Shown here: in pieces, positions 1 to 61,972 of the stretch
Position numbering within the stretch: position 1 is the first letter of the stretch
Layout of the letters: each line of letters opens with the position of its first letter
Source: Patescibacteria group bacterium
GTDB taxonomy: Bacteria > Patescibacteriota > Dojkabacteria > J137
Assembly (NCBI GenBank): GCA_963169855.1
Contig: CAUJCN010000002.1
Location: 197,508 to 261,507, forward strand
Direction: 5' to 3'
Length of the DNA: 64,000 bases
The notes under the pieces: generated by a model
What the model saw: only the letters and a program-made list of their open reading frames with translations
Database searches by the model: none
What the model was told of the DNA's origin: nothing
Position numbers and translations under genes: made by a program

Positions 1-180
1 TCCATTCTCGCGGATCCCCTACTAAAGTAGCTTTTGCTAATTTTTTCAAGGTTTCTAGAGGGACGTGTGCTTTATCATCTAAAACGAACCCTTCCAAACC
101 TAGTCTCGTGAGCTCATCTGCTTCCAGCTCTTTCAATCTAAAGTACTCAGCCATTTCTTGAATATCTTCTGTTCTCATAT
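1..180 (-). CDS. hypothetical protein, N-terminal part only (start codon at 180, runs off window edge)
   Basis: Minus-strand ORF begins ATG at 178-180 (MRTEDIQEMAEYFRLKELEADELTRLGLEGFVLDDKAHVPLETL...) and continues past position 1; no recognisable motif. Confidence 0.3.
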
Positions 181-2131: not shown

Positions 2132-2230
2132 GCATTTTGATTAACTAAGATAAGTATAAGACAGACTAAATTGAATTGATACTACGACTACAAAAATCCA
2201 TGATAATATTTAATTAGTTACTTTAAAAAT

Positions 2231-15081: not shown

Positions 15082-15153
15082 ATGACCTCACGGAGAATCG
15101 AACTCCGATTAGCAGATTGAGAATCTGCTGTCCTAACCGTTAGACGATGAGGC
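15082..15153 (-). tRNA. tRNA-Glu (anticodon CUC)
   Basis: Minus-strand cloverleaf GGCCTCA/TGAGGTC acceptor, T-arm CGGAG-TTCGATT-CTCCG, anticodon stem GCAGA/TCTGC with loop TTCTCAA; CCA not encoded. Confidence 0.7.
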
Positions 15154-15261
15154 CAATTGCAGCCTTCGACTGAAAATTCAAACAAATGAAAGATCCAAGT
15201 TCGAGATTTCAGTTCCATGGCTCGCAATTATATCACGTAGTAATTAAGCTTTGTGTATAAC

Positions 15262-34995: not shown

Positions 34996-35229
34996 TTACT
35001 TGACCGGGGGATTCACCCCGCTGCCGCGACAAACGCGGCAGACGCCTTTGCCCGGAACTGCACAGGAAGGACACTGATGTTCTTGTCCACCGGGAGCCTT
35101 TTTACGGATCCTCCCAGTTCCTGAGCAAACGTTGCACTTGCCATTGCCATTACATCCGGTACACTTAGCCACGCTAAATCCTTTCATGTAAATGCCAGAT
35201 GGCATATCATCTCTATATACTAAGTACAA
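34996..35229 (-). CDS. small DnaJ-CR-type zinc-finger protein
   Basis: 77 aa with three CxxCxGxG repeats (CTGCNGNG, CNVCSGTG, CRVCRGSG) plus CPSC; GC-rich due to Cys/Gly/Arg/Pro codons. Confidence 0.5.
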   Translation of the reverse strand: MYLVYRDDMPSGIYMKGFSVAKCTGCNGNGKCNVCSGTGRIRKKAPGGQEHQCPSCAVPGKGVCRVCRGSGVNPPVK

Positions 35230-51855: not shown

Positions 51856-53073
51856 TTACTGTTCGATATTATCGATGTTTTGCCGAGTCTCAAAAGAAGG
51901 GAAAACAACTCCATCTTTTCGAAAAATCCCTGTGCCAGTAACGAATTCCAGCCCCTTACCCTTCATTTGTCTAAACAAATTTAGGGTGCTACTTCTAATG
52001 GCATCAAGCTTTTTAGGAGGCAAGTAGCCCAATTTCAAGAATAAATCGTTACCAAATTCTTCTATAATGTCCTTTTGATGCTCTGTAATTTCGAAGTAGT
52101 AACTTTTATTACCATGGCTTAATATCAAAAGAAACGGTTTTTTCTTTGAAATGGCAATTTCCATGCCAACGATCTTACTAGCAATCTCCAAGTTAATAAG
52201 GGTTAATTTCGTGGACTTTCCAAGCAACTCTCTATACCCTTGCATATTCACTATCTTCACAGAACTAGCGAGCATAGGACTTTTTTGAGCTACTTGTGCC
52301 AACCTCGAAAGAGTAATTTGATCGAATGCTTTAAATGCCTTTCGTAATAGATCTTCTCGGGCTAAAGGAAACCCTGTTCGAGTTGCGCCAGCAGGATAAC
52401 ATTGCTCAAAAGGAACTCTAGTATTTAGGTTCACCAGGATTTTGTTAGCTTCTGTTGTATGGGTAGTAACATCTGTAAAGCCACTTTGAATCCTCCATAC
52501 TTGTTCATCGATGTAGTCTCCTGTGAATCCTGCTATAAATTTTATATAACGATACCCTGCTTGGTTTCTTGAGCAAGCAAATTTTACTGTATTCGTTGTG
52601 GGATCTGTAAGAACATAGAAATAGAAATCTCCTCCTCCATAGATCGTATATTTAAATGATGCAGAGTCTAGTTTATAAATGAGCAACTCTTTCCCTTCCC
52701 ACCCAATAACATTTTTAGGATTGTAAAAACCTTTTACGTCATCAAAGAACTCACGGTTCATAATCTCTATCTTCTCTTCTAAATCATCTTCAGACTTGGA
52801 AATTACAACTCCACCTGAACTATTAAGCCTTCCCGGACTCAATTTCTTTATTCGCCAACCCTCATTTATGATTTCCCGATTGATTCTAGCCATCGAGATC
52901 TCAAGTGTTCTTGGAGAATATCCCCTAGAAAATCTTCGTAAGTCCCATAGATTTAAATGTCCTTTTCTGAGCAATTCATCGTAAAGAAAGTTGGTGATGG
53001 ATTCTATTCCTGCTGATTCTATTATTGGTATTTTGTTCCTAAGGTCTTCCATAAAAACGATTATAACTCTCAA
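51856..53073 (-). CDS. hypothetical protein, paralog of 53134..54327
   Basis: 405 aa; shares ...R..PG....GG.VI...EDD... N-terminal block and ...LLI(L/I)S(H/N)G... C-terminal block with neighbour. Confidence 0.4.
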   Translation of the reverse strand: MRVIIVFMEDLRNKIPIIESAGIESITNFLYDELLRKGHLNLWDLRRFSRGYSPRTLEISMARINREIINEGWRIKKLSPGRLNSSGGVVISKSEDDLEEKIEIMNREFFDDVKGFYNPKNVIGWEGKELLIYKLDSASFKYTIYGGGDFYFYVLTDPTTNTVKFACSRNQAGYRYIKFIAGFTGDYIDEQVWRIQSGFTDVTTHTTEANKILVNLNTRVPFEQCYPAGATRTGFPLAREDLLRKAFKAFDQITLSRLAQVAQKSPMLASSVKIVNMQGYRELLGKSTKLTLINLEIASKIVGMEIAISKKKPFLLILSHGNKSYYFEITEHQKDIIEEFGNDLFLKLGYLPPKKLDAIRSSTLNLFRQMKGKGLEFVTGTGIFRKDGVVFPSFETRQNIDNIEQ

Positions 53074-53133: not shown

Positions 53134-54327
53134 CTAGCTTTCCCATACGGGGACTGGAAATATCAGAAATCTGTCGATCACGCATCCAGTCCCATCTGCT
53201 ATGGCAATTCCGTCTCTTTTCATAGCTGCAACCAGTCCTTTAAAGTAGTAATGAATGCTATCGTAACCATTCGTTCGCGTACCACCATATAAAATCACAT
53301 CTCCATCAAACGCGCTGATTGCACTTGCTTGTAGGGTAGAAATTTCTGCTAGCTGTAGCTCTTTTCCATTGGATATTATTAAAAGCCTGGTTCGCTCTTT
53401 AAAGAGGTTAAGCGGAATCTTGAGCTTATGTATTACTTGAGCGGTATCTAGAGGGATAAGTTTAACTTCTCCTTGTTTAAAAGCTTTTTTGGTAGCTTCG
53501 AAAGCCTTTCCAGAAGAAAGAATTTTTTGAGAAAATTTTGATGGACTCATAGAAAACGAAACCCAGTTGCTTACTAGATCTATCCTATTTCTCAAAATAC
53601 TTAGCAATGGATGCTTTCCAAGCATGGTTTTTAGGTAATCTATCCTGGCATTAGAGTTGGTAATTATGGAATACCCTCCTGCATTCGTAGCTTTAAATAA
53701 TGGTTCCATCTGGAGAATTTTGCCTAATCTTTTTACTTCGTTAACAAAATGATCGTACTTGATTACTGTTGAGAGGGTCTCCCAAATTAAGGAATCGAAG
53801 TACTCTACTTCGGCATCGTTTAACCTTTGCAGTTGGATTCCGATCAATGAATTTAAAGTAGCATAAAAAAGTCTGCTTTTTTCATTCACCCTTACATACA
53901 AAGTTATTGACTGGACACTGTAGTCAGCATCTTTAAAGTCTTCAGTACCGAAATTGAATATCTGGACTTCTCCTTCTGATGTTTTATACGAAGCTGATGG
54001 TTTCTTTTGGAGCGATTCTAGCTGAGAGTAAAATCTTTCGTTAATTTGTTGGACATAGATTGATGGATCATCTTCAAGATTAATAATGACCATCCCACCG
54101 ATACAACCTCCTGAGCCTGGTCTAATTCTAACAATTCTCTTCCCCTCATCTTTTAATTTTTCATTTAAATAATGTTGAACAGCATCTTTATAACTTTCTG
54201 AATAACCTTTTAATAGAACTGACATATCCATCCGGGTTAGGAATTTCAGATCATTTATTACCTCTACTATCCTTTCCCCTAAAGCTATCTCATTATTGAC
54301 TGGCGGAATAATTGGGTCTGTAAGCAT
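53134..54327 (-). CDS. hypothetical protein, paralog of 51856..53073
   Basis: 397 aa; RIRPGSGGCIGGMVIINLEDD parallels KKLSPGRLNSSGGVVISKSEDD. Confidence 0.4.
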   Translation of the reverse strand: MLTDPIIPPVNNEIALGERIVEVINDLKFLTRMDMSVLLKGYSESYKDAVQHYLNEKLKDEGKRIVRIRPGSGGCIGGMVIINLEDDPSIYVQQINERFYSQLESLQKKPSASYKTSEGEVQIFNFGTEDFKDADYSVQSITLYVRVNEKSRLFYATLNSLIGIQLQRLNDAEVEYFDSLIWETLSTVIKYDHFVNEVKRLGKILQMEPLFKATNAGGYSIITNSNARIDYLKTMLGKHPLLSILRNRIDLVSNWVSFSMSPSKFSQKILSSGKAFEATKKAFKQGEVKLIPLDTAQVIHKLKIPLNLFKERTRLLIISNGKELQLAEISTLQASAISAFDGDVILYGGTRTNGYDSIHYYFKGLVAAMKRDGIAIADGTGCVIDRFLIFPVPVWES

Positions 54328-55862: not shown

Positions 55863-56002
55863 AATTCCAGATTAACAAAGTAAAGTTTGCTGGAACTTGC
55901 TGAAGATATAGAAAATCTAACTCAACGAGTTTCAGCGATTAGTTGTTTACTTTATTTCGCATCGGAATTAGTTAATCTTAAAAATGTTTACTGTGTGTAA
56001 TA

Positions 56003-56073
56003 TTCGGAGACTAGGATTCGAACCTAGACAAGCAGCTTCAAAGGCTGCGGTCCTACCATTAGACGATCTCCGA
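56003..56073 (-). tRNA. tRNA-Gln (anticodon UUG)
   Basis: Minus-strand cloverleaf: acceptor TCGGAGA/TCTCCGA, D-arm, anticodon stem GCAGC/GCTGC with loop CTTTGAA, T-arm CTAGG-TTCGAAT-CCTAG; CCA not encoded. Confidence 0.75.
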
Positions 56074-56092
56074 ATACTACACACATTCTTTT

Positions 56093-56175
56093 TGCGGGAC
56101 TAGCCCCGTATCCAGTACGGGGGAACCTAGACAAGCAGCTTCAAAGGCTGCGGTCCTACCATTAGACGATCCCGC
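56093..56175 (-). tRNA. tRNA-Gln(UUG)-like second copy with aberrant/expanded T-arm (possible pseudo-tRNA)
   Basis: 48 nt identical to the body of the first copy (D-arm through variable region) but different acceptor (GCGGGAT/GTCCCGC) and a CCCCGTA-CTGGA-TACGGGG hairpin in place of the T-loop. Confidence 0.4.
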
Positions 56176-56244
56176 AATAATGCATAGCATTTTATCAATA
56201 AAAGCTAAAAGATAGAAGTGCCAATATGCCTAATATTACTATTC

Positions 56245-56562
56245 TTATGAGGCATCTCGTAAGGAGAATACATACCCTTTAAATGAAGTTGTGCTTTCTT
56301 CAGACCTTCTCCAAGTTCTACCATCAAATTCACTATAGAACTCTCCAAAGGATGATGGTCCAAACCTGGATCCTACAGTACCTTCGAATTCTAACTTAAT
56401 AGCTCCATTGAGAGCCGATTCTAATTGGCTAGGTGGCAATAGCTGCTTTAATGTATTTTCTGGTATAACAAGTTGAAATGACATTCCAATCTGCTCTCTT
56501 AATGCTTGTAACTTTTCTACTAAAATACTAATTGCTCCAATTAAGTTCATCGAGTTAGCCAC
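56245..56562 (-). CDS. hypothetical protein
   Basis: 105-aa ORF, no motif. Confidence 0.3.
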   Translation of the reverse strand: MANSMNLIGAISILVEKLQALREQIGMSFQLVIPENTLKQLLPPSQLESALNGAIKLEFEGTVGSRFGPSSFGEFYSEFDGRTWRRSEESTTSFKGYVFSLRDAS

Positions 56563-56630
56563 TCCGTACTTTCCATAGTGTATATACTCTTGATATTCTA
56601 CACTTTTTTATGGAGAGGATCTAAGCAAAC

Positions 56631-57362
56631 TTAAAATTCTTCAACTTTCACCAATTGAAGCGAATCGTCTTTTGCCACAACCGTGTAATGATTGTGTAGT
56701 TTTAAATCTATGTGTAGTTTTTCCAGAAATTTTCTAACCTGAGAAGTTAATACCTGTATGTACGATCTTGTTAATTCTTCTCCAAAACAGTTTGCAGTAA
56801 TGTTTTCGATTGTTACAGGTCCAGCCTCTATTGTAGGTAACAGAAACTTTAACAGGAATTCCATTTTGGATTTACTCTTATATAAAAAGTTTTCAATCAA
56901 CGCAATATCTTCATCAATTTTGTTATCTCTTTTCTGTCTTTCAAGAGTAATTTTACTTTGTAATCTTTTCTGAAAAAGAAAAACGACATCCAAGTATTCT
57001 AAATGACCACCAATTACTGCTCTAAGGTAGTACAAAATATGCTGCACTGTTTTTATCTCATTTTTATCCACTTCGTAGTAGTGACTAAAAGAGTCTAATA
57101 TATCTGAAAAAAGCTCTGCCCAATCGCTTACAACTCCAAACTTCTCTTCAGAATTTGCATGGATTCTTCGAACTTTACTTTCCCATATTCTCAAAATGTC
57201 ACAAACATAATTAAACAACTTTGGTGATTGAGTATTGAACTCCGTGAGTTGTTCTCGGAAATTTACCGATTCGGTTGTGAAAATATATCTTAAATCTACA
57301 GAGTCATTCAAAGGCTGTCTTTTCGTATCTAATCTTTGTCGCTCTGAAAATGTTGCTCCCAT
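56631..57362 (-). CDS. hypothetical protein
   Basis: 243-aa ORF, no motif. Confidence 0.35.
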   Translation of the reverse strand: MGATFSERQRLDTKRQPLNDSVDLRYIFTTESVNFREQLTEFNTQSPKLFNYVCDILRIWESKVRRIHANSEEKFGVVSDWAELFSDILDSFSHYYEVDKNEIKTVQHILYYLRAVIGGHLEYLDVVFLFQKRLQSKITLERQKRDNKIDEDIALIENFLYKSKSKMEFLLKFLLPTIEAGPVTIENITANCFGEELTRSYIQVLTSQVRKFLEKLHIDLKLHNHYTVVAKDDSLQLVKVEEF

Positions 57363-57625
57363 AATGCATAATTTTTGTGATTATACTATCAATTCTTCTG
57401 ACGTCAATACGGTTGAATTTAGTTTAAATACTGTATTCTGAAATTTAGCTACAAAGAAGATTTCAGTACCGCATTGGGAATTTTTGAAATGAGCTAAGAA
57501 CTCTCCTTTAGAGTATTCAGCGTATTCTTTTGTCTCCTGTGGTGACATCTCCACAAAGCCTATATAACTGCTATATTATAGCATAGCAAGTCGCTATATA
57601 TCGGCATCAGGGAATAGTTTTAGCT

Positions 57626-59488
57626 TTAGTAGCTAATCTCGTAATCTTCGTTTTCTAGACGCAAATCTTGAATATGATCCTTAAGGAAGTTGAATGTTTG
57701 CTCTGCCTTCATTTCTTTATTTCTTAGAAGCTCATCAGCAAACGATTGAATTAATGATTTATGCTCACCTACAAGCTTTTCAGCTTCCCATTTTGATTCA
57801 GAAGCCATTTCTTGCAAGTACGAATTTGTTTTTTCGAAGTCAGTGTCATAATTTTCGCTATGCATTTCTGTGACCGGTTTGACAGATGTATTAACTCTAT
57901 CGTCTAGACCGAACTTTCTAATATAGTTTGCAATAAGACTTGTGGCTCTTTCGATATCTGATTGACTTCCGGCAGAAACCTTTTCTTCTCCCATGAATAG
58001 TTTTTCGGCCGCCATTCCAGCATATAGAACAATTAACTTCTTCTTCACATTTTCTTTAATATTAACAATCTGATGCGGGAACACAAAACCAGAGATACTG
58101 TTTGACGACGAATTCACCACAACTTGCATTGGAGCGATTTTAAATAGCTCTGAATAAAGAACTGCATGAGCCGCTTCGTGAATTGCTGTAACTTTTCTAT
58201 AAATCTCACTTTTACTTGTTCTTATTCTGTCTAATGTTCCTTGATATGAAATCTCTGAGAAAACAGAGTCTGAATTGTCCTTCCCTACGATTTGCTGTGC
58301 TTTTTCATTGTAAGAAAGATGGATTGTATTCACATTTATTTTTAGAGCTTGAGCAAGAATCATTGCTACTTTATTTTCAACAATTTCTGTAATAGTACTG
58401 AATAATGGTCTTGTTCCTTGAACTGGGAAAACACCGTTCTTGTAAATTAAGTTATGAATTGTTTGATCGAACGAAACTTCTACTCTAAAAGACTCACTAA
58501 TTTTTTCTGCTATCTTTTTAAGTCTTTCGGAAATAATTCTTTTATATGCACTTTCACTTAAACTTGGATAAATTATATGAGTGTTACCTAATCTACTTAT
58601 TTGTTCAGGTTTAAATCTTAAAGACAATGCCTCTTTAATTTTAATTACGTTGATTTGTTTGGTTTGTGCATGAAAAATATCCGCATCTACATCAGCTTGA
58701 TCGGCCTCTGCAGCCATTTCATAGGCTTCGTCTAAGTTTCCACTAATAATTACTAGTGATTTAGAAAAATCAGCCTCCTTAAGAACTGATTTTGTACTGA
58801 ACTTTTCAAAAACTAAATCATATAGTGTTGAAGCAGTGAATGTTTTTATGACTTCGATATCAAGCGGTAAATCTACAACGTTCTTTAATTTGCTAAGATC
58901 CCAACTACTCAATCTTAGTTTTGGCGGTGCTTCACCAGCTGCTTTTGCTCTTTCTTCACTTTCTCTTTCAGAATCAAGCATCGAAAGAATCGAGTAAAGC
59001 TCCATTACTGAATCCTTTACAGCAAATTTACCATCACTCAAAAGTTCCCAGAAATCTCCAAATTTTGTTTCGAAAATATCTTTTCCTTCTTGATCAATTG
59101 TTCTAAATTTCTGAATTTCGTCAAAGAAAATTATGTTTGGCTGCGATGGGTCTACAGACGTTATTCTTATTGCTTCGGCAACTGTAGACATATATCTATT
59201 GTAGCCTGCGTCTCCGTTCGTTAGAGTTATCTCTGTGAATCTTTCTCTTAAGTCCAGAAAGTCGACAAGTTTTCTAACCAAATCAGTTTTTCCGACTCCA
59301 GTTAATCCCCACAAATTTATTACAACTGGACGTGTAATAATTTCTGGCATTACATACCAGACGTATAAAGAATCAATTAGTAGATCAATTTGTTCGTCTA
59401 TTCCGAAAAATAAATTCTTCAAGTAAGATCTAGCACTGTTTAATTTTTCTTCTTGTGAGATTCTCTCGTTCATAAATCGATTATACAA
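57626..59488 (-). CDS. soluble P-loop NTPase fused to peptidase M41 (FtsH-like protease domain) without membrane anchor
   Basis: Walker A GLTGVGKTDL, Walker B IIFFDEIQK; C-terminal AIHEAAHAV (HExxH), LYAGMAAEKLFMGE and SAGSQSDIERATSLIANYIRKFGL align with FtsH HEAGHA / LYGGRLAEE / [24 protein letters not shown]; no TM helices. Confidence 0.6.
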   Translation of the reverse strand: MYNRFMNERISQEEKLNSARSYLKNLFFGIDEQIDLLIDSLYVWYVMPEIITRPVVINLWGLTGVGKTDLVRKLVDFLDLRERFTEITLTNGDAGYNRYMSTVAEAIRITSVDPSQPNIIFFDEIQKFRTIDQEGKDIFETKFGDFWELLSDGKFAVKDSVMELYSILSMLDSERESEERAKAAGEAPPKLRLSSWDLSKLKNVVDLPLDIEVIKTFTASTLYDLVFEKFSTKSVLKEADFSKSLVIISGNLDEAYEMAAEADQADVDADIFHAQTKQINVIKIKEALSLRFKPEQISRLGNTHIIYPSLSESAYKRIISERLKKIAEKISESFRVEVSFDQTIHNLIYKNGVFPVQGTRPLFSTITEIVENKVAMILAQALKINVNTIHLSYNEKAQQIVGKDNSDSVFSEISYQGTLDRIRTSKSEIYRKVTAIHEAAHAVLYSELFKIAPMQVVVNSSSNSISGFVFPHQIVNIKENVKKKLIVLYAGMAAEKLFMGEEKVSAGSQSDIERATSLIANYIRKFGLDDRVNTSVKPVTEMHSENYDTDFEKTNSYLQEMASESKWEAEKLVGEHKSLIQSFADELLRNKEMKAEQTFNFLKDHIQDLRLENEDYEISY

Positions 59489-59494
59489 TTTATT

Positions 59495-60460
59495 TTAGCG
59501 AGTTGTTACTTCTGAAGGATCTATAAATCTTTCAATTAGTGAGTGGAATTGTTCCGCCAGCTGTTCAATTAATTCTTCCTTTGAAATTTCCTTTTGAAGA
59601 TATCGTTTTAAAACAGGAGCTCCTTTTTCAATCTCAGAATAAAGTTGCACCCAGCGATCGCGCCTCGACGGATCCTTTTCATAAAGCTTTCTATAGTGTT
59701 CTAAATTCTTTGAAGGTGACATTCCAAAAACTAATACATCATTCAAGGAGTAAACTATCACTTCTTCGATAAAGTAAGAAAACGTAGCTTTATAAATGGC
59801 CTCGATAGTTCTATCAAATTCTGGGAAATGTTTTTCAAAATATACTGCTGGATTAAGTTCTTTATGAGTAAATTCGTGAGCTAAAATTAGTAGAGAATTG
59901 TTGAAATTACTTTTAGTATTTCCAGTAGTAGAAACTTGAGCGACAATTCCCTCCCCATTTGCACCACCTTGAGAAGAGTTTGGATCAGGAGAATAGGTTA
60001 TATATGCTGGTAAAACTCCACTTTTTGGAGTTGTTTCGAAAACTTCTGTAAAAATCAGAATGTTTTTTTGAGTTGTTAAATTGTTAAACTGTCTTTCTAG
60101 TTCTACTGATGTTTCTTGAATTGTTGGGAGAACAGACTCGAGCTCCTCTTTTAAAGTTTTCCCATCTTTTCTTTTGGCTTCTGCAATCGCAACTAAATGT
60201 TCTAACAACTGAGAAAATTTATCGTTTTCAGGAAATCCAGAGTAAGCCCAATTTAGTAATTCAGCTTCCTGATCCCATCCAAGCTCTGCTTTAATTCTTG
60301 CGTATTCTGACAAGTGCTGCTGGACTTCATCTGTAATTTGATAATTGGCAGTAAAGTATCTTGGAATATGTGGGCCAACAAAATAATCCCATTTAGAAGC
60401 ACCGTTTATGAAATCAACTAAAAGTACATTGTAGTTTGTTCTTACGTCAAGCGTTCGCAT
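59495..60460 (-). CDS. putative zinc metallopeptidase-like protein (HExxH)
   Basis: Single HExxH motif LILAHEFTHKEL; otherwise unrecognised. Confidence 0.4.
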   Translation of the reverse strand: MRTLDVRTNYNVLLVDFINGASKWDYFVGPHIPRYFTANYQITDEVQQHLSEYARIKAELGWDQEAELLNWAYSGFPENDKFSQLLEHLVAIAEAKRKDGKTLKEELESVLPTIQETSVELERQFNNLTTQKNILIFTEVFETTPKSGVLPAYITYSPDPNSSQGGANGEGIVAQVSTTGNTKSNFNNSLLILAHEFTHKELNPAVYFEKHFPEFDRTIEAIYKATFSYFIEEVIVYSLNDVLVFGMSPSKNLEHYRKLYEKDPSRRDRWVQLYSEIEKGAPVLKRYLQKEISKEELIEQLAEQFHSLIERFIDPSEVTTR

Positions 60461-61011
60461 TACTTTCCTCCTAATCTTACGTATTTTATGTAAGCAATTA
60501 TTAATTCATAAGCTTCGAATGCTGGAACTAAAATTGGATCTTTGTTTTCAACCATACTTTTAAATTCCTCAAACGAAAACCATTTTAATCCATCGACTTC
60601 ATCATTTTTTATATCAAGATTAAAATCGTAATTACCAAGATCAATAAATGTATGTATGAATTCGTTTTCAACGATCCCCTTTTCTGAATCAGAAAATCCA
60701 CCTCTTACAATTCCCTGCAAAAATAGTGTATCAATATTAATATCTATTCCTAATTCTTCTTTTGCTTCTTTGATTGCTGTAGAAACTGGATCTGAGCCAG
60801 CGTCAATGTGACCTGAGACTGGTGCAATCCAAAGATTAGGAAAAAGTTTTTTCAACGGAGTTCTTTTTTGTAGAAGAATATCATTGTTTTCGTTGATAAA
60901 CCAGACATGAGAAGAAGCATGCCAATCACCATCTCTATGAACTTCTGAACGATTTTTTATAGCTTCTGTTGGTCTTCCAAATTTATCGTAAAGTGTTAGA
61001 TTGTCGTCCAT
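60460..61011 (-). CDS. NUDIX hydrolase
   Basis: Nudix box GHIDAGSDPVSTAIKEAKEELGI (G.5E.7(R/K)EuxEExGu). Confidence 0.65.
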   Translation of the reverse strand: MDDNLTLYDKFGRPTEAIKNRSEVHRDGDWHASSHVWFINENNDILLQKRTPLKKLFPNLWIAPVSGHIDAGSDPVSTAIKEAKEELGIDINIDTLFLQGIVRGGFSDSEKGIVENEFIHTFIDLGNYDFNLDIKNDEVDGLKWFSFEEFKSMVENKDPILVPAFEAYELIIAYIKYVRLGGK

Positions 61012-61046
61012 TTTGATGTGTTAAATAGAATTATTCTATCACAACC

Positions 61047-61550
61047 TTACGGAGTTAAAGTGTAACCGAATACCCCTTTTGAATAGTACAAGTCGCCCCT
61101 TTTTTCGATCACAATATATGCTTGAGCATTGTAGTAAACTGAAATATTTGGATCTGTAATTTCTCCTCTGTATGTAATGTTACCTTCAATGTATTGATTA
61201 GGCTCTCCAGGTATAAATAATTTCCAGACAGTGAAGTTCTGAAAAATTCTGTCGAAGTTTAAGTAACAATAAGGTTCCCCAGGGCTCATGAAAAAGTACT
61301 GTCCTACCCAAGGATAAGATGTGATTAACGCTTCTGGACTTTCGTGACCAATTTGGAATACAGTGTTTCCATTCAAATTGAATAATCCTGGCGCATCGTT
61401 AAAATATTTATCACATACTTTATCTGGACCTGTAATTTCCAAAATTGCTGGCAACCAATAGTCTTTTGTAACAACGAACAGGAAACAACAGGAAGAGGCA
61501 ATGCAACATGCGATTAGAATGACGAAAACAAAGATAAATGGAACTTTCAT
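61047..61550 (-). CDS. secreted hypothetical protein
   Basis: Signal peptide with cysteine cluster (ILIACCIASSCCFLFV); no motif. Confidence 0.35.
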   Translation of the reverse strand: MKVPFIFVFVILIACCIASSCCFLFVVTKDYWLPAILEITGPDKVCDKYFNDAPGLFNLNGNTVFQIGHESPEALITSYPWVGQYFFMSPGEPYCYLNFDRIFQNFTVWKLFIPGEPNQYIEGNITYRGEITDPNISVYYNAQAYIVIEKRGDLYYSKGVFGYTLTP

Positions 61551-61591: not shown

Positions 61592-61972
61592 TTACAAAGT
61601 TGCGTATAAATCGCATTTGTATCCATCGGGATCTTCCACAATACAATATCTCTGCCCCCAAAAAGCATCCCATGGTTCTTTGAAAATTGCAAATCCTGAT
61701 GATTTAATCTTTTCCGCAACTGAATTTAGTTCTTCTACAGAATCGTATTGGATTGCAAAGTGAGAATGATTACTTGGTTTTGGTTCTTCTCCTAATATTT
61801 CTGTAATCAATTTCTTGGAATCAATCATCAGTCTAGCATAACCTTCTGGTGTTTCTGGTTCTAGATGATCTTCGTCTTCTTTGTATTCTGGAAATTTGAA
61901 GCCAAGAATTGTGTAGAATTCTACAGTTCTCTTAAGATTGCTTGAGCAGACTCCAATTGCGTTTAGTTTCAT
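61592..61972 (-). CDS. VOC (glyoxalase/bleomycin-resistance) family protein
   Basis: 126 aa; MKLNAIGVCSSNLKRTVEFYTILGFKF N-terminal beta-alpha-beta-beta-beta module. Confidence 0.65.
   Translation of the reverse strand: MKLNAIGVCSSNLKRTVEFYTILGFKFPEYKEDEDHLEPETPEGYARLMIDSKKLITEILGEEPKPSNHSHFAIQYDSVEELNSVAEKIKSSGFAIFKEPWDAFWGQRYCIVEDPDGYKCDLYATL

Follow-up and report, generated by a model that had tools for sequence, protein, structure and literature searches.

A tandem tRNA-Gln locus of a Dojkabacteria-related bacterium with a T-loop-less tRNA-like unit, a clamped tRNA gene and a conserved hairpin-bearing 3' half

Two tRNA-Gln units stand in tandem in a 64,000-nucleotide stretch of DNA from a Patescibacteria group bacterium (contig CAUJCN010000002.1; the whole stretch is hereafter called the window). 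We consider it probable, if only narrowly so, that the first unit in the direction of reading (copy 2) is an old tRNA-Gln gene that was fused by recombination to a hairpin-bearing tRNA 3' half (the module), that the second unit (copy 1) is the working gene, and that the module would be a structured, non-decoding part of the transcript. The evidence comes from the sequence and predicted folds of the locus, and from its comparison with two related lineages: L020 (GCA_964650085.1), in which the neighboring ABC-F protein is 53% identical to that of the window, and a third species, represented by L027/L028 and L029-L032, the coding DNA of which is 79.5% identical to that of L020. The comparison therefore comprises three lineages, two of them fairly close. 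The coordinates of all parts of the locus are collected in Table 1.

Table 1. Parts of the tandem tRNA-Gln locus in the window, and the free modules in the two related lineages
Feature	Location	Strand	Remarks
Putative extended -10 promoter, TGATAAAAT	56189..56197	-	12 nt upstream of copy 2; function from consensus only
Copy 2, T-loop-less tRNA-Gln-like unit	56092..56176	-	Predicted cloverleaf with hairpin T arm
Copy 2, 5' acceptor strand	56176..56170	-	
Copy 2, 3' acceptor strand	56099..56093	-	
Copy 2, A73	56092	-	
GC hairpin, CCCCGTA-CTGGA-TACGGGG	56104..56122	-	19 nt; stands in for GAATC (T-loop 57-60 and position 61)
Window counterpart of the module	56088..56139	-	3' anticodon-stem strand, variable region, hairpin T arm, 3' acceptor strand and A tract; aligns with the free modules
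Spacer between the units	56074..56091	-	18 nt; its last 12 nt (56085..56074) are the 5' strand of the helix extending the copy 1 acceptor stem
Copy 1, canonical tRNA-Gln(UUG)	56003..56073	-	71 nt; Rfam RF00005 and ARAGORN; folds as cloverleaf
Extension of copy 1 acceptor stem, 5' arm	56085..56074	-	
Extension of copy 1 acceptor stem, 3' arm	56003..55992	-	A73 plus 11-nt trailer
Free module, L020	2061..2118		Preceded by decayed 5' remnants
Free module, L027	165..222		No 5' remnants; 49 unalignable nt after the normal tRNA-Gln

Two units of unequal standing

A previous, sequence-only reading of this DNA had described a tandem tRNA-Gln(UUG) locus. Two units are indeed present, but both are on the minus strand, so that copy 1 is located downstream of copy 2, and copy 2, which adjoins the promoter-like motif, fails the tRNA tests. 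Copy 1, which that reading had already placed at 56003..56073, was confirmed as a canonical tRNA-Gln by Rfam RF00005 (65 bits, E = 7.7e-12, model positions 1-71, against a gathering cut-off of 29 bits) and by ARAGORN, which called tRNA-Gln(ttg). Its acceptor stem is UCGGAGA/UCUCCGA with a U1-A72 pair, the discriminator is A73, and no CCA is encoded. It is the only canonical tRNA-Gln(UUG) gene detected within the 64-kb window, in which no other partial copies of tRNA-Gln or tRNA-Glu were found.

The acceptor stem of copy 1 is continued outward by its leader and trailer. The long helix noticed earlier, then estimated to extend the stem by about 13 bp, is real, but consists of 12 contiguous pairs, one of them G-U; together with the 7 bp of the acceptor it forms a 19-bp helix around copy 1. 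Repeat I9, with arms of 19 nt that are 95% complementary, contains a single mismatch, which is a G-U pair in minus-strand RNA. The 98-nt precursor of copy 1 has a predicted folding energy of -44 kcal/mol (z = -7.05). By an identical measure, copy 1 had 12 contiguous leader-trailer pairs, whereas 25 further units, tRNAs or tRNA-like, had 0-2, and the leader-trailer duplex of copy 1 scored z = -4.0 relative to shuffled sequences. Complementarity above the shuffled expectation was also seen in copy 2 (z = -3.4), the L020 tRNA (-3.1) and the tRNA-Glu of the window (-2.4), and none of 22 tRNAs from unrelated organisms fell below -1.5; these four cases are a hint but do not make a rule. At a permissive threshold Rfam also returned a miRNA match, which merely reflects the long helix; beyond tRNA, all matches at that threshold were of the kind expected by chance.

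Copy 2 shares with copy 1 an identical D arm, anticodon arm (UUG) and variable region. The shared body was recognized before, as 48 nt in a unit spanning 56093..56175, and needed only slight revision: the identical run is 49 nt (56171..56123 = 56068..56020) and the unit covers 56176..56092. The acceptor of copy 2, formerly given as GCGGGAT/GTCCCGC, is indeed distinct from that of copy 1, but reads UGCGGGA/UCCCGCA in the register of copy 1, i.e., a perfect 7-bp stem with U1-A72, followed by A73. The two acceptor stems differ by three base pairs, all fully compensated. The T region of copy 2, CTAG-GTTC-CCCCGTA-CTGGA-TACGGGG-CTAG, contains a CTAG/CTAG T stem, a GTTC bulge and the 7-bp hairpin, which replaces GAATC. 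The resulting T arm is predicted to fold at -12.1 kcal/mol, compared to -4.4 for the normal one.

Copy 2 scored 21.8 bits with the Rfam tRNA model, below the cut-off, in a match that ends inside the hairpin, and was not called by ARAGORN; nor did any of the folds tested yield the ordinary tRNA that the sequence-only reading had left room for. The elbow formed by the T-loop and the D-loop of a tRNA is used by RNase P, RNase Z, the CCA-adding enzyme and the ribosome. Since copy 2 has no T-loop, this elbow cannot form, and copy 2 would be very unlikely to decode.

Other identities were considered for the hairpin. A dispersed palindromic repeat of the REP or MITE-like kind was rejected, as the hairpin is present in a single copy within 64 kb at up to 3 mismatches. 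An intrinsic terminator was rejected because the scan found none at 56092..56130 and the hairpin is followed by CUAGUCCCGCAAAAA and not by a U tract. An intron-containing or split tRNA of the archaeal type was rejected because there is no bulge-helix-bulge but one 4-nt bulge on one strand only. The window has only two perfect GC-rich hairpins, including that of copy 2; the other is intergenic (35021..35041, CTGCCGCG-ACAAA-CGCGGCAG) and unrelated to it. A canonical terminator (AAAAAGCCC...GGGCTTTTT) does follow the tRNA-Glu(CUC) gene at 15083..15154 on the minus strand.

The window as a whole is gene-dense, with about 35% G+C, and its proteins are bacterial, among them PNPase, MurJ, AsnB and the ABC-F protein. 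The best named relatives of the PNPase belong to Candidatus Dojkabacteria (51-65% identity), and only two lineages are closer (85% and 78%). When 185,579 species genomes were scanned with the neighboring ABC-F protein, no close relative was found, only three unrelated loci. No integrase, recombinase, nuclease, ligase, defense-system or mobile-element gene was found among the 13 neighboring proteins (50.6-62 kb). Two paralogous proteins of about 398 aa without Pfam match are encoded at 51856..53052 and 53134..54327 (minus strand), the former having a single homologous cluster (55% identity) among 5.8 billion proteins searched. Six genes (101 aa, 243 aa, FtsH-like of 620 aa, 321 aa, NUDIX, and 167 aa) occupy 56245..61550, between the tRNA locus and a glyoxalase gene (61592..61972); in L020 the glyoxalase orthologue (69% aa identity) lies just 1.8 kb from the tRNA, so that synteny is broken on the 5' side of this locus.

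The same locus in related lineages

Common to the window and L020 are the upstream block TTATTGATAAAATGC, the ABC-F leader downstream, and the landmark GTAAACTAATT. The block lies directly upstream of the first tRNA unit and is identical in the two, in flanks that are otherwise 67% identical. The first unit of L020 is a normal tRNA-Gln (64.6 bits in Rfam), and copy 2 agrees with this functional gene at 66/66 positions outside the T-loop replacement, including all 14 of the acceptor stem (14/14), such that the exchange of GAATC for the 19-nt hairpin is the sole difference. L027, too, has a normal tRNA-Gln with the acceptor of copy 2 at the matching position. Judged by both position and sequence, copy 2 is the orthologue of the older tRNA-Gln gene of the lineage.

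The hairpin is also found in both relatives, in a separate place. Roughly 40-50 nt downstream of the intact tRNA, L020 and L027 each contain a hairpin-bearing tRNA-Gln 3' half, which begins at the end of the anticodon loop (its final base or bases) and continues to 4-10 nt past A73. In L020 it forms the intact 3' part (GCTGCC-TTGT-CTAGG-TTC-CCCCGTA-ATAAA-TACGGGG-CTAG-TCCCGCA-AAAT) of a second, decayed unit that starts 16 nt past the tRNA and retains an acceptor-like TGTAGGGC, a D arm down to a few nucleotides, and an anticodon stem with a 3-nt loop. It had been anticipated that orthologous loci might be normal and the window in error; the gene is indeed normal in the relatives, but since the same hairpin is conserved there, a sequencing error is not the cause.

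The module is 58/58 identical between L020 and L027, against 79.5% for coding DNA and 41-75% for the adjacent spacers. Between the window and L020, the hairpin stem is identical at 14/14 positions and the loop at 1/5 (CTGGA in the window, ATAAA in L020 and L027), with flanks at 62-67%. Thus, over the three lineages the stem is 14/14 identical while 4/5 of the loop has changed, and as there are zero stem substitutions there is no covariation to score. Simple arithmetic of neutral chance gives 0.75^19 = 0.004 for L020 against L027 and 0.67^14 = 0.004 for the window against L020, which makes the identity of the 19 hairpin nucleotides unlikely under neutrality as far as these sequences go; the neighboring tRNA cannot keep these nucleotides alike by gene conversion. 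At the level of sequence, the comparisons document that the module is kept as strictly as the tRNA itself while the surrounding DNA decays. Because it is conserved in two related species, the hairpin piece is probably not simple junk.

More distant ABC-F orthologues (L021-L026, 42-45% aa identity) had no tRNA upstream, and the PNPase contigs of two relatives (L033, L034) had no tRNA and provided no further pre-tRNA flanks. The 10 genes retrieved by a metagenome scan with an anticodon-arm/T-arm pattern were all ordinary, single tRNA-Gln genes from unrelated organisms, and not one had a long T arm or a tandem partner. In 2.9 million viral contigs, two specific patterns had 0 matches and a looser hairpin pattern had 4, all terminator-like and from unrelated phages, and BLAST against phage records returned ordinary phage tRNA-Gln genes only (83-89% identity). 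A search for literature on CPR or Patescibacteria tRNAs with T-arm changes found nothing.

Several other features of these loci are recorded here. L027 has, just upstream of its normal tRNA-Gln (positions 1..35), a D-arm-like fragment, GTCC-[TTGCCTGCCGAAGGCATGGTG]-ATGGTA-GGAC, which is a second tRNA-Gln piece with a GC hairpin (TGCCT-GCCGA-AGGCA) in its loop; two SPAdes contigs from different samples both begin exactly at this fragment. A hairpin, GCAAGAC-N14-GTCTTGC, starts within the last three nucleotides of the L027 tRNA-Gln (112..140) and is absent from L020. In the minimum-energy fold of L027 1..235, the 5' acceptor strand of the tRNA pairs with the distal module and not with its own 3' strand. 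The ABC-F gene is present at the locus in the window and L020 and absent in L027, and in L020 a tandem heptamer (AAAGCCC) repeated 8 times lies at 2163..2218, between the module and the ABC-F leader, where L027 lacks ABC-F.

The ABC-F gene itself has a 5' leader that is conserved in five lineages (window 55863..55975, minus strand; L020 2225..2371; L021 1030..1173; L023 2870..3003; L024 95..238). The leader has the motif CTA[AG]TCAG and, stopping a few nucleotides short of the ATG, a hairpin, which in the window reads TTCCAG...CTGGAA. RNAalifold predicted 12 pairs, 4 of them with compensatory changes, and there was no Rfam match; in this model the leader looks like an attenuator that would sequester the ribosome-binding site. 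Pairing of the copy 2 hairpin loop with this leader was considered and rejected, since the complementary 5-mers were either conserved in both genomes or AT-rich and expected by chance.

Proposed origin, transcription and role

Judged by the 5' remnants in L020, the module is a descendant of a full-length tandem copy. Copy 2 would then be the product of an exchange in which the old gene lost its T-loop side and received the module instead. The variable region of copy 2 is of the tRNA type (GCTGC-TTGT) and that of the free modules has an extra C (GCTGCC-TTGT), and the junction is therefore placed inside TTGTCTAGGTTC. The simplest route would be deletion between direct repeats common to the tRNA and the module (...GCTGC(C)TTGTCTAGGTTC...), and the alternative would be a short-patch conversion of the T arm. 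The 7-mer AGAATGT comes after copy 2 in the window and likewise after the normal L020 tRNA, a placement that would fit short-patch conversion slightly better than deletion. Since either event removes the only normal T-loop of the old gene, and would have been tolerable only beside a second functional gene, copy 1 would already have been present downstream, where L020 and L027 have an A-rich spacer. Alternative histories include an ancestor with three copies, a conversion swap, and a later insertion of copy 1. Given its 14/14 match to the L020 acceptor, either the fusion was recent or copy 2 is itself under selection, the latter not being required by the model. The options named in the sequence-only reading were a pseudo-tRNA from duplication or conversion, a tRNA-derived regulatory RNA, and a recombination scar, of which recombination and the pseudo-tRNA are partly supported by the 66/66 match to L020, the shared upstream motif and the free 3' half in L020 and L027.

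Co-transcription of the two units is probable, because they are 18 nt apart and TGATAAAAT is the sole promoter-like motif seen for a two-unit transcript; it was not among the promoters listed by a two-hexamer scan. Transcription would likely start from this single motif (56197..56189) and produce a precursor consisting of copy 2, the 18-nt spacer and copy 1, and copy 2 would probably be the 5' part of the precursor of copy 1. In such a precursor, the 12-bp clamp would force copy 1 to fold locally despite its 49-nt identical neighbor. The study PMC9433436 describes bacterial RNase P as inhibited when the leader pairs with the 3' end and so lengthens the acceptor stem, and because of this inhibition RNase P would act on copy 1 only after the clamp had been melted or cut; cleavage of the clamp by RNase III is offered as a suggestion. 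The arrangement resembles the processing stems of rRNA precursors and the leader/3'-end pairing of pre-tRNAs (PMC9433436), where a mature RNA lies within a long leader-trailer duplex and, in pre-tRNAs, RNase P is blocked until the duplex is resolved, but a 12-bp extension around a single bacterial tRNA is not the described norm.

As to the module, it is probably a structured, non-decoding part of the tRNA-Gln transcript, as a leader or trailer element; it could contribute structure to the precursor, or else be what remains of an integration site. Functional RNAs are known to be cut from the spacers of tRNA precursors, e.g., the 3' external transcribed spacer of E. coli leuZ (reviewed in PMC8166272). 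The likeness is that a structured, conserved segment lies outside the mature tRNA, putatively on the same transcript, and in L020 and L027 a short way downstream of the tRNA; the differences are that the segment here is tRNA-derived and is known from its sequence alone. A bolder reading, to which we assign a low but appreciable likelihood, is that the module is a dedicated tRNA-derived RNA element kept beside tRNA-Gln in Dojkabacteria-related bacteria, consisting of the 3' half with a GC hairpin in place of the T-loop. It would act at the RNA level, maybe by offering the tRNA 5' half an alternative 3' partner, or by controlling the maturation or level of tRNA-Gln as a stable RNA derived from the spacer. 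In the window this element would have been hard-wired into a full-length, T-loop-less tRNA-like RNA, co-transcribed with a tRNA that needs a double-strand-specific cut.

Competing explanations and known systems

Two other explanations of the module deserve weighing, and both appear rather improbable, to a similar degree. The first traces the hairpin 3' half to site-specific integration at tRNA-Gln, of which it would be a relic in the form of a displaced or element-supplied fragment or of a landing site that is still used; copy 2 would then be a hybrid, att-type junction and copy 1 maybe a replacement brought by the element. The extent of the free module, from the end of the anticodon loop to a few nucleotides past the 3' end, is typical of the tRNA fragments (att repeats) that are left where islands and prophages end, for which the concept of the displaced tRNA-gene fragment exists (Islander database, PMC4383910); as with those fragments, it is the 3' part, near an intact gene and with variable neighbors. 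The gene content beside the locus varies, as seen from ABC-F and the 5'-side synteny break, and copy 1 sits between 12-nt inverted repeats in place of the A-rich spacer of the relatives. In contrast to att repeats, however, there is no integrase or mobile-element gene among the 13 neighboring proteins, no island between the repeats, which are 18-49 nt apart, and no further tRNA-Gln fragment in the 64 kb. The 5' remnants of L020 point to a full-length tandem copy and not to a 3'-only att repeat, the 2.9 million viral contigs lacked the hairpin pattern except for the 4 terminator-like matches, the hairpin in place of the T-loop is conserved across species, and a fragment with a hairpin T arm could not restore a working tRNA.

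The second is that copy 2 and the modules are functionless pseudogene debris of a tandem tRNA-Gln duplication, conserved by chance or by recent ancestry. The 5' part of the second unit has indeed decayed in L020 and is gone in L027, copy 2 fails the tRNA models, and the locus is full of indels and small repeats; as in known tandem tRNA duplicates and pseudogenes, there is a head-to-tail pair with an identical body, one member of which fails those models. Nonetheless, such pairs differ from the present one, in which a loop was precisely replaced by a stable 7-bp hairpin that is itself conserved, and in which the acceptors differ by three compensated pairs. Neutral decay should moreover have been equal for stem and loop, and for the 3' and 5' halves; instead, the modules of L020 and L027 are identical throughout amid diverged coding DNA and spacers, and the stem is unchanged in the far more distant genome of the window, where 4/5 of the loop is not.

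It is clearly less probable that copy 2 works as a tRNA-like adaptor, its T arm being non-canonical, e.g., one that is charged and serves off the ribosome in a non-translational role, or that its hairpin is a removed intervening sequence. The intact acceptor stem (with U1-A72 and A73), D arm and anticodon arm, the adjoining promoter-like motif, and the 66/66 agreement with the functional L020 gene outside the replacement would all suit an adaptor. However, the part that is conserved in L020 and L027 has neither a D arm nor an anticodon loop, so that any shared function would be independent of decoding or anticodon recognition. As for removal, excision of the 19 nt from copy 2 leaves CTAGGTTC-CTAG, in which T-loop nucleotides 57-61 are missing and there is no T-loop, and the single 4-nt bulge on one strand is no bulge-helix-bulge. 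No tRNA splicing endonuclease is known from bacteria. Mitochondrial tRNAs that lack the T arm, and archaeal tRNAs that are split or have non-canonical introns, are comparable in having a tRNA shape with a non-canonical or interrupted T region, but the present case is from a bacterium, its T arm is lengthened, and neither the archaeal splicing motif nor a T-loop upon excision is found. Lastly, an assembly or sequencing artefact can be practically dismissed: tandem repeats such as this one of 49 nt are known to cause misassembly, but Logan assemblies of at least 4 other runs break within the shared body with both expected unique flanks, the same hairpin stem occurs in an NCBI MAG, two ENA assemblies and one Logan contig (L029), and across the hairpin region three more Logan contigs (L030-L032) share 99.9% identity with L027.

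Overall, the locus belongs with tRNA-derived elements and tRNA-gene turnover, the conserved 3'-half module with its hairpin being the new element. Should the module be left over from recombination or integration, the locus shows tRNA-gene turnover of an ordinary sort, if in a tidy form. The 19-bp clamp predicts that the duplex is resolved before RNase P acts, and offers one defined locus at which the maturation of tRNAs in bacteria with reduced genomes can be tested. If the module is functional, it would be a tRNA-derived element, small and easily recognized, that is specific to a little-known branch of the CPR, and copy 2 would offer a natural bacterial tRNA body with a designed-looking replacement of its T-loop.
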